Origin: Octopus vulgaris
Lineage: Eukaryota
Assembly: GCA_951406725.2 (NCBI GenBank)
Contig: OX597817.1
Coordinates: 149,234,001 to 149,298,000, forward strand
Reading direction: 5' to 3'
Length of the DNA: 64,000 nt
Shown piece after piece: positions 13,151 through 54,959 of this stretch. Position numbers and translations under genes: made by a program. Numbering within the stretch: the stretch's first letter is position 1; each line of letters starts with the position of its first letter. Below the pieces are notes generated by a model. The model ran no database searches. It had not been told where the DNA came from and was given only the letters and a program-made list of their open reading frames with translations.

Positions 13151-13387
13151 CTAGTATTATAACCCGATTTCATGCGAGTCAACTCTGATCACATTTTACA
13201 GATGAGGAAATTTGCCCTCGGGGCCATACCTTTCAATTGAACGAACTCAAAGTTGCCATACAAACTCCCCAGTACTTTTAACATAGGTATGCAAATTTCC
13301 AGGTCAATCCGATCACATTTACTAACACTTTTGCCAGCACAACTGCTTGTGAGACAATGTCCGCCATTTTCACAAATATATAGTAGA
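13151..13387 (-). mobile_element. Short non-autonomous Helitron
   Basis: Minus strand: A|TCtactatatat...actcgcatgaaatcgggt imperfect hairpin...CTAG|T; no TSD. Confidence 0.65.
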
Positions 13388-13430
13388 TATATATATATAT
13401 ACACACATATACACAGATATATATATATAT

Positions 13431-14673
13431 ATGGGTGCTGAAACGGCTGCTGACTGGGTGCTGAAACGGCTGCTCAACCACTCAAATGTGGAAGTGATAT
13501 ATCTCCACTTTGCAAAGGCCTTTGATAAAGTCGATCAGGGAATGATATGTCACAAACTGCGTGATCTCAACATAGTTGGAAAACTGGGAGAATGGCTTCA
13601 TGACTTTCTGAAAGATAGAAGTCAGGTGGTAGTAGCCAATGGGGCCACTTCCATTAACACGCAAATAGTGAGCGGTGTTCCGCAGGGCACTGTTCTGGGA
13701 CCACTACTGTTCATAATGGCCCTCTCAGACATGCCCTCAGCCACGCAGAGAGCCACGATCACAAGTTATGCAGATGATACAAAAGTTTCACAGGCAATAC
13801 AGAACCCCGAGGACACTAAACACCTGCAATGTGAGCTGGACAAAATATACAAGTGGGCCGAAAAGAATAGCATGCAGTTCAATGCTGAAAAGTTTCAAGC
13901 TCTATACTATCAGCATGCAAAACTAAATGCAATACCCAATGAATACACTGGACCCGGAGGAATAGTAATCCCAGAGGCACAATCAGTGCGTGACCTAGGT
14001 ATTTACATGAGTGATGACGCGACCTTTCGTGTACATGTTGCTAAATTGGCAATGAAACGACTGGCCGGATGGATCTTCAGAACCTTTAGAACAAGAGAAC
14101 AAGAAACCATGATGGTCCTCTGGAGGACACTTGTCCTAAGCCACTTTGACTACTGCTCTCAGTTATGGTCACCATCCAGTGTCAAGTTGATCACAGAGCT
14201 CGAGGCGATCCAATGTAGCTACACGAAGAAGATAGCCTCTATGCAGAATGTAAGCTACTGGGAAAGACTCAAGAGATTAAAAACTATATTCCCTGGAGCG
14301 TAGGCGGGAAAGATATGCCATAATATACATCTGGAAGATCCTGGAGGGACGTGTCCTGAACTTTGGCATCGAGAGTTACGCAAATGCCAGAACTGGGCGC
14401 CACTGCGTGGTGCCTAGGACTCCAAACTTGCCATCAAGATGTAGGACAAGATTCTGTGATAGCCTGGGCTTCCGAGGCCCACAGCTCTTCAATATCCTCC
14501 CGAAGAACCTGAGAGACCTGCATGGAGTGGATGCAGATGTCTTTAAAATGAAGCTGGATCTCTTCCTGTCAGGTGTCCCAGATGAACCAACTTCACGGCA
14601 GGAGGGGCAGATGAGGGCAGCTGCATCGAACTCTCTCATGCACCAAATGGCAGTTGCTAGAAAGCTTTCGTGA
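13431..14673 (+). pseudogene. Reverse transcriptase pseudo-ORF of CR1-group LINE
   Basis: YLHFAKAFDKVD, SGVPQGTVLGPLLF, YADD, VRDLGI, SYWERLKRL; frameshift near 14280; C-terminal FKMKLDLFLSGVPDEP. Confidence 0.9.
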
Positions 14674-14860: not shown

Positions 14861-15399
<539 letters not shown>

Positions 15400-15611: not shown

Positions 15612-15725
15612 TTATATCTAATTTATATCTAATGTAGAATAATTTTTTTTCGAAAAAAAATTTTATCCTACATTAGATATAAATTTAATAGTGTTCATTT
15701 CCGGACTCTCCCACTCTGTGAGTGC

Positions 15726-16553
15726 AGGGTTTGTAGAGGCCGGTTGCGATAATACGTTAGGGGAGACCCTAGGTTTCGACGATAATCAGCTGGCCAGACT
15801 GTTCCAACGTACATTTGGGCCGAGGACCCTGGATAATTTTCAGAAGTCCTTGGCATGGCAGTGTTACCGAGGAGCCTTACCTGTTCGGGATAAACTCTCA
15901 AGGCACGGAGGCCAAGACAGCCCGACCTGTCCGAGGTGTGGGCGAGACAGGGAAACCGTCTCGCACGCGATCTTGCAGTGTTCGGAGGTGTCGGACATGT
16001 GGGTTTTTGCCGAACAACTGTTGTCAAGTGGAGGAGGAGTACAGCTATCGACTGAATCCATTGTAAAAATCGCCCCGCCGGATTTCTTAACGAAAGAAGG
16101 TAAGAATTGTTTTCTCTCTGGTTTCAACTGCGAAACAGGTAGTATGGAAGACAAGGATGAAAGGGGTAACAACAGGCAACTTCATCTCTGGTCCTAGTGG
16201 TATATTTTAGATTACACCTAAAAAGACAAATAGAGCTAGAGAGGAGGTGCCTGAGTAAGAAAGTGTTTGATGAAAGATGGAAGAATGTCGTGAAAAAAAG
16301 GACCCTCATGAATGCGAGATAAGCCTAAAAGAAAAAAGGAAAAAAAAACAAGGTCAGTGTCGTGGCGGGGCTCGTGAGGTCCGTAATCCCACTCCACTCC
16401 ATCTGTGAAATTGTCCTGTACAGTGTCTTATCATCCGTAAACTGTAACCATGTATAAATTTTTAACAGACCCCATACGCATGTTTAATGTTAAATCACTC
16501 GTGATTGTACCGTTTTTTTCTATGTATAACCTTTATGGTGAATAAAGAAAAAA
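15726..16553 (+). mobile_element. L1/Tx1-clade LINE 3' fragment inserted in the right arm of the foldback
   Basis: zf-RVT-like WQCYRGALPVRDKL..CPRCGRDRETVSHAILQC; ends AATAAA + A-run; host arm resumes at cacgtg 16559. Confidence 0.85.
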
Positions 16554-16685
16554 TCTCCCACGTGTCTTGAATGGGCTGGAGTATTTCTATTTTGGATTTA
16601 TTTGGGGTACTTAGTTGTGCTCATGACTTAATGTTTGCTTCTTCCATGGGTATGAGTAAGTATCTCATTTACTTCTTTGCCACAT

Positions 16686-16741
16686 GTATCACTGACGAAG
16701 GGAGGGTTCTTTTTGAACTAACCCTGAAATCGGTCCGATAT
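16686..16741 (+). ncRNA. Minimal type I hammerhead ribozyme motif
   Basis: gtatca CTGACGA agggagggttc ttttt gaactaaccct GAAA tcgg TC cgatat; stem II aggg/ccct plus ggttc/gaact. Confidence 0.7.
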
Positions 16742-16973
16742 GGTAATAATGGAATTTTTTAGAGAGTTCTGTCGACCTTTTTTCGAGTAGCGTGCGTACT
16801 GGGAAAAACATTATATGGTAAATGGAGAATATGTCCAATTTTTCGGCATATTTAGCATTAGAAAATTTTTTCGTTTGCCCTTATTTATAAGTTGTTTATG
16901 ATTTAACCTTTAAAGGTATTATTTAATATGATGGTCATTGATAAAAAATTTTTTCGAAAAAATTTTATCCTAC

Positions 16974-17032
<59 letters not shown>

Positions 17033-17034
<2 letters not shown>

Positions 17035-17372
17035 TTTTGGGATTTGGTTTGCAAGATTCTTTATATGAGTTCGTGTGTTGAAGCATATTCTGTTGTGTCT
17101 GGGGACAGTCATTTTCTTTTTGTGCCCTATAATTTAACACACTCACCGGTAAAATCTCCACTTATTCCTTATTTTTATTTTCCTAAAATTTCGTTGCGTC
17201 TTGCAACCTTTTCAATAGTCTTGACTCTGAACAGACAGAGTCAAGACTATTGAAAAGTTTGCAAGACGCAACGAAAATTTTAGGAAAATAAAAATAAGGA
17301 ATAAGTGGAAATTTTACCGGTGTGTTAAATTATAAGACACAAAAAGGAAATTACTCTCCCCACACACAACAG
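17033..17372. mobile_element. Foldback element family B in (TA)n with HHR-like variant core
   Basis: Arms 17090-17229 and 17236-17372, 6-nt loop; TTGAAAAg-gttgc aagac gcaac-GAAA; related element at 21600-21752. Confidence 0.72.
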
Positions 17373-17400
<28 letters not shown>

Positions 17401-17404
<4 letters not shown>

Positions 17405-17629
17405 GGTCCCGGGTTGATTCGGGGTTAACCACAGTAAGTAAGGTACTCAATACATAGCAGAGTAAAATTAATTTATTATATAGAAGGAGCTTCTACAGGA
17501 CTAGTACTGTTTCATTCAAGAGAAATCTTCAGGAAGCTCTTCCTGAAGATTCTCTTGAATGAAACAGTACTTCCTGAAGATTTCTCTTGAATGAAACAGT
17601 ACTAGTCCTGTAGAAGCTCCTTCTATATA

Positions 17630-17635
<6 letters not shown>
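17401..17635. mobile_element. Double-hammerhead foldback family C, copy 1, in (TA)n
   Basis: HHR on minus (17488-17538) and plus (17570-17616), plus a partial core duplication; same left end as 54040 copy. Confidence 0.85.
17488..17538 (-). ncRNA. Type I hammerhead ribozyme
   Basis: agcttc CTGAAGA tttctcttgaat GAAA cag tactagtc ctg TA gaagct: 6-bp stem I, acag/ctgt stem III, GUA triplet. Confidence 0.75.
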
Positions 17636-21597: not shown

Positions 21598-21752
21598 GTT
21601 TATATATTTCTTTTGCAAGATTCTTGATGCGAAATCGTGTGTTGAAACATATATTGTTGTATTTAGGAATGGTCATTTCGCCAGTTTAGCCAATTTTGTG
21701 CGTGTGTTTTTATTGGCTAAACTGGCAAAATGACCATTCCTAAATACAACAA
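21598..21752. mobile_element. Short foldback related to family B, with 12-bp flanking duplication
   Basis: Arms 21654-21694 / 21712-21752; ctaaagtactac at 21586-21597 and 21753-21764; shares tttgcaagattct..cgtgtgttgaa.catat with 17048-17090. Confidence 0.7.
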
Positions 21753-24910: not shown

Positions 24911-25529
24911 TATATTATATGATACCATTTGGCAAGGGGATATGGTCAGGACATTTATGATAGATCTGGATGTTTATACCAAAGATGTGGGAGGCTGGAG
25001 GCTGTCAATGATAGTAAACGTCCCTGTTGAATGCCATCTTCTGAAGAATATTTTCTATAGGGATTAATGTGTGACGACGACTATATCACTTGACTGTATC
25101 GCTTCGTACAATCATCCAATCAATTATCGTAGAACACGGGCAGATCAGCGAGACAAAATCTACCACTTCAAGAATTAGTCAGGAATCCGGCTGGAGCTGG
25201 ACATAAGACCTCTAGCTGAAGGCATTTGATCTGTTTCGAACCAGATTCACTTAGCGGATGGAAATGAGAAAGGGTGTCGTAGGTAAAAATGAATGAGTGC
25301 TACATAAGTGTTAGTAAGGGCGGTGCAATCAATTTAATTGCTGCTTATAAACAGATTGGTGCATCTAAAAGCAATCTAAGGAAGTTAGTGCTCCTCGTTG
25401 CAAGTGAGAGGTTTTACAGTGATATTTTAAGTGTGGCGCTAGCTGAGAAGAGATGGAATCTAAAAGCCCTGCAAACCAGCTCAAGCAATTCCAACTATCT
25501 GACACTTATCGAACAGATTTCCTGAAAGA

Positions 25530-26025
25530 GCTAGTGTGAACGGAAAGGTTGAAACAATTAAGACTCTACACTCTGGAGAGAAGACGGGAGAGGTATGCAG
25601 TAATATATATTTGGAAGATCCTGCAAGGAATTGTGCCAATTCTTGGTATTGAAAGTACACCAATGCCAGAACGAGACGACACTGTATAGTGCCAAAGGTC
25701 CCAGCAATGCCATCACGCTTCAGGACCAGTATTTGCAACAACCTGGGTTTCAAGGTCCCACAGCTTTTTAATATTCTCCCAAAGAGTCTGAAGAACTTGC
25801 TCAAAGTAGATGTAGGGGTTTATAAATCAAAGCTGGACCTCTTCCTGTCGAGAGTCCCAGATGAACCTACCTCACGGCAAGAGGTGCAAATGAGGGTAGC
25901 TATATCAAACTCCATGCTTCATCAAGTGCCATATATTAGCGGAGGCTCTCAGTAATAACAATGTAGCAAAACGGCGAAAACGGCGGTGCATCAGCATGGC
26001 CACAGCTCTGAGCTGAAACTAGAGA
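25530..26025 (+). mobile_element. CR1-group LINE 3' fragment
   Basis: LGFKVPQLFNILPKSLKNL..KSKLDLFLSRVPDEPTSRQE; same 3' tail as 14700-14742. Confidence 0.88.
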
Positions 26026-54009: not shown

Positions 54010-54039
54010 TTATATTATATATATATATATATATATATA

Positions 54040-54232
54040 TGTAGGTCCCGGGTTGAGTCGGGGTTAACCACAGTAAATAAGGTACTCAATACATAGCAGA
54101 GTAAATTAATTTATTTTATAGAAGGAGTTCTACAGGACTAGAACTGTTTCATTCAAAAGAAATCATCAGGAAGCTTCCTGATGATTTCTTTTGAATGAAA
54201 CAGTTCTAGTCCTGTAGAAGCTCCTTCTATAA

Positions 54233-54237
<5 letters not shown>
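54040..54237. mobile_element. Double-hammerhead foldback family C, copy 2, in (TA)n
   Basis: Palindrome centred on ggaagcttcc (54169-54178); starts tgtaggtcccgggttga like 17401. Confidence 0.88.
54172..54222 (+). ncRNA. Type I hammerhead ribozyme
   Basis: agcttc CTGATGA tttcttttgaat GAAA cag ttctagtc ctg TA gaagct; canonical core, mirrored on minus at 54126-54175. Confidence 0.8.
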
Positions 54238-54285
<48 letters not shown>

Positions 54286-54476: not shown

Positions 54477-54582
54477 AATTCCTAGAACGAGAAGAATTCC
54501 TAGAACGAGAAGAATTCCTAGAACGAGAAGAATTCCTAGAACGAGAAGAATTCCTAGAACGAGAAGAATTCCTAGAACGAGA
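54477..54582. repeat. Perfect 18-bp minisatellite, ~5.9 copies
   Basis: aattcctagaacgagaag repeated with no mismatches. Confidence 0.95.
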
Positions 54583-54959
54583 CTTAAGCAGCTAACGTTT
54601 GAATAACAGACACTCGTGAGGAAGAAGGCAAAAAGAAAACTAGAAATGGACATAACTACCGTTACAATTAACAAAAGTCTAAATAACGTTAACAAGATAT
54701 TAACGGTTTACGATGTGTCTAGTGGCCTATTTTTAAATTCCGCCAAGATGTATTTCTTAATGTGTGAACATACTGAAAAAGTCTCGTTCATGGAATTTAC
54801 GCAGCTGTCGGAGACTCTCTAGTTCTTTAAGAGGAATAGTTTTTCAAGAGAACATATTGAACATGTTTTGGACCAATTAATATAGGGGCTGGTTTTGGAA
54901 AGGATTTTCCATTAGATGTCGTAATTGATCCCTTCATCTTTAAGTTTTCAACTTCCTTA

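Follow-up and report, generated by a model that had tools for sequence, protein, structure and literature searches.

Head-to-head end repeats of a Hydra-clade Penelope-like element in octopus DNA

The window analysed here, a 64,000-nucleotide stretch of Octopus vulgaris DNA, exhibits at positions 54040..54237 the end repeat (pLTR, consisting of a hammerhead motif and a tail) of a Hydra-clade Penelope-like retrotransposon. It is a protein-free short insertion in head-to-head arrangement and, as an object, an ordinary transposon by-product. The young family to which it belongs, with thousands of 200-bp products, offers a compact test system for the Penelope mechanism. We consider it probable, though well short of settled, that such insertions arise when two cDNAs, primed separately from opposite sides of a cut (TA)n target, run to the capped 5' end of the RNA and join via AGCT.

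The insertion at 54 kb and its hammerhead motifs

The insertion consists of a tail arm on the minus strand (about 136 nt) placed head-to-head with a tailless arm on the plus strand (about 66 nt), and near-identical copies of it are found genome-wide. Positions within the repeat are counted from the predicted ribozyme cut GUA/GAAG, stem I opening at position -45 with the A of AGCUUC. An earlier note on this DNA described a palindrome of about 200 bp. Self-comparison identifies a real mirror at 54111-54237 (127 bp, 98.4% over 128 columns), whereas 54040-54109 is an unpaired 70-bp tail on one side (minus strand), which in the parent element continues into the 5' UTR and ORF (tail-to-ORF junction in locus L149). 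The far end of the tail, at +93/+94, is a candidate copy-start site (site 1); a second one (site 2) is the end of the tailless arm at +20 to +23 (54230..54240, plus strand), where the element passes into (TA)n. Since the flanks are (TA)n repeat on the left (54018..54039) and on the right (54238..54282), no target-site duplication is distinguishable around 54040-54237. The arms meet in a loop-less turn GAAG/CTTC (54170..54177, centre 54173/54174), in which AGCT (54172-54175), common to both strands, forms the opening four bases of stem I on each of them and would correspond to the 5' end of the RNA. A 17-bp tandem repeat lies just right of the element (54480-54584).

A second copy (17401..17635) belongs to another subfamily (CTGAAGA / TCTT / TACT) and turns at GGAAGCT/CTTCC, according to its sequence and self-comparison. 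As previously noted, the copies at 17401 and 54040 open with the same bases and both sit in (TA)n; they are 91% identical. The turn at gaagct(tc) reported for both holds exactly for the 54-kb copy, whereas the 17.4-kb copy is an unclean mirror. In the tailless arm of the latter, 31 nt (17539-17569) are duplicated in tandem from 17570 onward. Directly adjoining this copy is a palindrome of about 290 bp (17085-17377, 89% self-inverted), the tail-like left part of which also matches 21606-21660; a pattern scan of this palindrome identified no hammerhead core.

The plus-strand hammerhead (54172..54222) exhibits the type I core (CUGANGA, GAAA, NUH) with stems I and III, and follows the Hydra pattern. 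The 6-bp stem I (54172-77/54217-22), CTGATGA (54178-84), GAAA (54197-200), the 4-bp stem III with its 8-nt loop and the GUA site, with a predicted cut at 54216/54217, are all present, in agreement with the earlier description of a canonical CUGAUGA ribozyme. Stem II comprises just three Watson-Crick pairs and is closed by U.U instead of the G10.1-C11.1 pair. U...U flanks of stem II are present in most Hydra hammerheads listed in File S2 of PMC8557442. The constrained fold of 54172-54222 reaches -7.3 kcal/mol against a minimum of -7.6 kcal/mol, and the stretch folds no better than its shuffles (z 0.04). Among the best 150 of 259 Rfam matches no hammerhead family was found, nearly all of these being microRNA models on hairpins and microsatellites. 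On the minus strand, the hammerhead at 54126..54175 (predicted cut 54131/54130, by sequence and folding) has a damaged stem I because a G is missing from the left arm four bases past the predicted cut (G+4). A transcript across both arms is predicted to form a hairpin of -112.7 kcal/mol, in which the ribozyme fold would be excluded. Loop III is self-complementary at 54204-54211 and at 17600-17607 (predicted duplexes of -9.4 and -11.8 kcal/mol), so that two RNAs could pair as a dimeric ribozyme.

The parent retrotransposon and its copies across the genome

Long copies of the family pass through a microsatellite-rich 3' UTR to an RT-GIY-YIG ORF. Twenty endonuclease loci were chosen from 150 matches, 12 for their long open frames and 8 from the top matches; in 19 of them the hammerhead lies 2.0-4.9 kb downstream on the same strand. 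Locus L149 exhibits the tandem order pLTR-ORF-pLTR with a unit of 4,784 bp. The single ORF of the parent encodes a 713-aa protein with YRDD and LVY...YIG motifs; as a Pfam search returned no RT or GIY-YIG match for it, the assignment of these domains rests on the motifs. The protein also exhibits DKT at residue 116, the CxCx5C linker (CNCPDKTTC) at 567, CxxC (CDLC) at 667 and CxH (CMH) at 695, while GxKF/Y, also looked for in it, is absent. By these motifs the parent matches the endonuclease-bearing Penelope-like elements of the Hydra clade; the Neptune clade was rejected, the linker being CxCx5C. The general organization is that of Penelope elements, with direct pLTRs (L149), inverted pLTRs with a tail on one end (10 long inverted copies, one tailed arm each) and a hammerhead motif within the pLTR.

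The family shares with the Hydra clade, including Hydra-1_Obim (Craig et al. 2021, PMC8557442), a single ORF with RT, CxCx5C linker and GIY-YIG, the DKT, CxxC and CxH motifs, the (TA)n target (in nearly all copies shown here the tail adjoins (TA)n), an inverted 5'-truncated copy, a one-sided tail, and a hammerhead in which one U follows CUGANGA and another precedes GAAA. It differs in the hammerhead sequence, which is not the one listed for Hydra-1_Obim, in a unit of about 4.8 kb with a microsatellite-rich 3' UTR against generally <3 kb (a typical trait in PMC8557442 rather than a strict criterion), in a tail of about 70 nt against 30-40, in RWR at residue 38 where the clade has RWK, in the 8-nt loop III, and in the predominance of 200-bp stubs among the sampled copies.

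The element had been thought to occur twice, but it is far more abundant. Exact-pattern counts in the 2.8-Gb genome yielded 5,225 matches to a 28-mer of the tail and 8,127 to the hammerhead arm (reversed controls 0 in both cases), so that the family has at least 5,225 tails. The arm variants earlier regarded as private to each copy turned out to be subfamily markers present in many copies and in ORF-bearing parents. For a sample we took the first 100 tail matches on contig C1 regardless of their neighbours and analysed 99, leaving out L004. Sixty are short inverted pairs, 30 continue for at least 180 nt, 8 are short without a second arm, and one is mixed. The tail ends at +93/94 in 90 of the 99 copies; for the tailless arm the end point is +20 to +23 in 49 of the 60 short ones, and it recurs in long copies.

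Fold-back reads can arise from long-read methods, and the palindromes might be artefacts of sequencing or assembly. This explanation is hardly credible for the palindromes, as opposed to the single-base scars described below, and is largely refuted: the two flanks differ, the tail is one-sided, and contigs from four independent runs exhibit the same two 3' ends running into TA. One of these runs displays the fold junction at the stem I edge, and in a check of four runs each had a contig switching strand within the element.

The turn was proposed to be fixed at the 5' edge of the ribozyme. Its location was correctly recognized, but the arm ends form a cluster: 89 of the 120 arm ends in the 60 short copies fall at -45 to -37, the first nine ribozyme bases, 37 of them exactly at -45, and 9 lie beyond -46. 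When the inversion points are tabulated among copies they gather at the stem I edge, yet only 7 of 60 are exact folds and 43 junction types are distinguished. The same types recur across subfamilies, which indicates that junctions are remade at insertion and not inherited. These observations stand against the idea that a few ready-made palindromic masters, resembling a SINE or MITE family, are copied whole and have their arms homogenised by gene conversion; in addition, the subfamilies match long parents, the stubs lack the upstream promoter, and arm scars are not shared. Such masters are very unlikely in our judgement, even though the top BLAST matches to the 54-kb copy are exact folds 98-100% identical to it, and exact folds make the largest class (1,854 arm matches).

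Palindromic words alone do not set the turn, a possibility we rejected since the nearby GTTAAC, AGTACT and ACTAGT are rarely used. Some junctions (L067, L118, L222, L161) enclose other sequence between the arms: SINE-like DNA (167 nt), templated duplications, or parts of the ORF that stop at stem I. Other copies repeat short arms head-to-tail: the units restart at stem I in L279, one restarts at the predicted cut site in L303, and L265 has a 60-bp triplication with the same scar, which suggests template jumping.

Origin of the two arms

The arms of one copy resemble each other as the earlier note had observed: at four diagnostic sites they are discordant in 3 of 172 comparisons, where about 71 would be expected under random pairing. 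Both arms thus derive from one source. The explanation then offered, that the second arm is copied from the first by hairpin priming, fares less well. In this reading one cDNA, on arriving at the ribozyme's 5' edge, would turn back and serve as its own template, the symmetry being blurred later by central deletions; a similar self-priming has been proposed for Adineta Penelope elements, whose palindromic junctions were read in this manner (PMC3846280). It accounts for the nearly constant match of arms by subfamily and for the mirrored rare variants of L253 and L261. However, the arm reaching further 5' in the 60 short copies is the tailless one in 27 and the tail arm in 23 (equal in 10). The 10 long inverted copies (an eleventh, L222, is composite and is kept apart) divide evenly: 5 have tail and ORF on one arm, and in the other 5 the tailless arm alone has the ORF and its partner alone the tail. 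Either arm can therefore hold sequence missing from its partner, up to kilobases. The commonest junction, moreover, has no loop, and a loop-less AGCT turn would suit two annealing strands better than one folding strand. Hairpin priming fits worse than two separate primings, and we regard it as unlikely, while noting that central deletions in palindromes can also produce asymmetry.

Scars at the predicted cut site (+1/+4), mostly lost G's and amounting to 521 deletions genome-wide, bear on the same question. Among 58 short copies they were found in 7 tail arms and 15 other arms (22 copies), and never in both arms of a copy, L090, scored as such, being a parsing miss. This one-sidedness is again at odds with hairpin copying. 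Among 100 listed deletion places, two copies are scarred in both arms, L263 differently, which favours separately made arms, and L262 alike; the latter, as well as the variants of L253 and L261, speaks for hairpin copying and against two primings. None of 30 long tail arms is scarred (p 0.004). A census of the first 57 Mb of C1 (122 arms), which stands in for a genome-wide scar count in long-arm context, has one scarred arm among 56 long ones. Four of the six short copies passing -46 are scarred, which suggests that scars track short palindromes and not capped RNA, and that they could be post-insertion or technical, in which case the missing mirroring is uninformative on synthesis. A local predicted hairpin overlaps the scar site; in the run contigs the single-base scar falls below the 1% listing threshold and no contig spanned it. 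The scars may thus be palindrome-related or technical.

The recurring turn likely marks the 5' start of the RNA, which would be capped and begin with A(-45). Of 111 long arms, 104 have TATAAAT 29-23 nt upstream of this base; against a role of this TATA box in such a start, its flanks are as conserved as the box itself. Arms were also sorted genome-wide by the base preceding stem I: 3,170 have T/C, in most cases that of the parent; 1,854 have A, for the most part from exact folds; and 971 have G. In the long arms seen the parent base is never G. Twelve bases at -46 in the census were scored as having no template; 9 are G and one is A, and the 2 T's merely continue the parent. Thus 9 of the 10 bases neither genomic nor partner-derived are G (p 3e-5 vs 0.25), a clean test resting on 10 junctions since 16 of the 25 census G cases are possibly templated by the partner arm. 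An extra G from a copied cap has been described for full-length L1 (PMC11702581). Sixty tail-to-ORF matches were obtained, 29 of them within one C8 array; the other 31, counted by hand, begin at -45 to -37 in 11 places, retain the upstream pLTR in 9, begin at -55 in one and further 3' in 10. In one locus (L304), (TA)n is followed by a G and then by stem I, hammerhead, tail and ORF. The pile-up at -45 is in part due to the AGCT microhomology itself.

Position -45 might also be a processed end, at which a 5'-to-3' exonuclease or the RT halts before a folded ribozyme or protein complex, the arms otherwise being formed by two primings. The boundary coincides with stem I, the capped start is putative, and the anole hammerhead is protein-assisted (PMC11167929), all of which fits; the untemplated G (9/10) and the TATA spacing would remain unexplained, and long copies cross -45 on both arms. 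We hold this explanation to be quite unlikely. Two further candidates were rejected. A splice acceptor at stem I, of the kind found in D. virilis, does not agree with the AG retained in copies, and a start at the cut site is too rare to be the main class, with 1 of the 31 ORF-leading places (L303). If transcription starts at stem I (L149:2589-2771), cleavage after 45 nt would leave the ORF message without its cap. A role in translation initiation has been reported for type I hammerheads of viral 5' UTRs (PMC13725137).

The model of two separate primings builds on the parent, the (TA)n target, the two fixed 3' ends (+93/94 and about +23), the 5' pile-up at -45 and arms of a single subfamily. 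Transcription would start at A(-45) from the TATA box of the upstream pLTR. Each target strand may prime reverse transcription at an internal site of its own, as with a Poseidon element in vitro; the cap would be copied as an extra C, appearing as G at -46. The cDNA 3' ends would then be joined by microhomology, AGCT producing the exact fold and other short matches the variant junctions. A stub formed in this way lacks the promoter and is predicted to be dead on arrival. The model makes exact predictions: the RNA should start at A(-45) and copying at +23 and +93, the ends should join at AGCT, and errors should be unmirrored. More tentatively, and with considerable doubt, the stubs may be read as a fossil record of a dimeric enzyme, of two strong-stop cDNAs from an RNA capped at stem I, of their AGCT join, and of independent scars at ribozyme-made nicks. 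If true, this would provide genomic evidence of in vivo hammerhead cutting and two-ended priming, accounting for the inverted pLTR and the one-sided tail.

Known systems and neighbouring sequences

In L1 twin priming both target strands prime and the products are joined by microhomology, the two cDNAs copying different parts of one RNA; the strong-stop product of LTR elements is a short cDNA ending at the capped 5' end with an extra G. The mechanism proposed here would combine the two-strand priming and microhomology join of the former with the cDNA reaching the capped 5' end with an extra G of the latter, and differs from twin priming in that both cDNAs copy the same part of the RNA. Twin priming appears as a term in PMC11702581.

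Inverted-pLTR Penelope elements of Adineta vaga and Drosophila virilis (PMC3846280; PMC2377424) exhibit the same head-to-head pLTRs, palindromic junction and tail on one end, and their transcript begins inside the upstream pLTR, as would be the case here. For those elements self-priming on an antisense template has been put forward, whereas we favour two primings ending at the capped sense 5' end; the Drosophila Penelope promoter is internal and TATA-less, unlike the one suggested here. Poseidon PAc in vitro (Frangieh et al. 2024, PMC11167929) exhibits two internal RT starts bracketing the tail, resembling those we postulate, an AT-rich target cut on both strands, and a hammerhead at the pLTR-ORF boundary, and a dimer is predicted for it. 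It belongs to another clade, and its start sites are inside the ORF, those considered here being upstream of the ORF. The origin of Penelope-like inverted ends and tails, and the role of the hammerhead, are stated as open in PMC8557442, PMC11167929 and PMC4209133. Inverted pLTRs and head-to-head Penelope insertions, tails, (TA)n targeting and pLTR hammerheads are already published; the literature covered by our search, mostly other than subscription papers, yielded no account of cap-G strong-stop pairs or cut-site scars in Penelope-like elements. What the present case adds are the cap-G counts and the scar counts.

Animal non-LTR retrozymes (bioRxiv 10.64898/2026.07.22.740005) are, like the stubs, protein-free, related to pLTRs and equipped with a type I hammerhead. 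They are head-to-tail tandem monomers, each with a hammerhead, and are linked to RNA circles, in contrast to the short head-to-head pairs that make up 60 of the 99 sampled copies; the stubs, moreover, derive directly from an autonomous parent, whose promoter they lack. An array on contig C8 (L284, G000:C8:91475364-91483207) is composed of 29 units of about 271 bp, 5 of them head-to-head with the other 24, each holding a TATA box, hammerhead, tail and ORF start; it is a retrozyme-like derivative of the same Penelope parent.

A second, unrelated hammerhead family occurs in the window (CTGACGA...GAAATCGGTCCGATA; 15177 on the minus strand and 16692 on the plus strand), with inverted arms in (TA)n at 14995-15360 (minus) and 16560-16980 (plus). 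Between them sits a 550-bp frame (15643-16197, minus), which we take to resemble the C-terminal zinc-finger region of an L1/Tx1-type LINE and which is possibly a captured fragment. LINE reverse transcriptase fragments of an abundant type, presumably CR1/L2-like, are found at 13353-14673 (plus) and 25481-25955, and a 1,015-aa frame of this type is present in L122.
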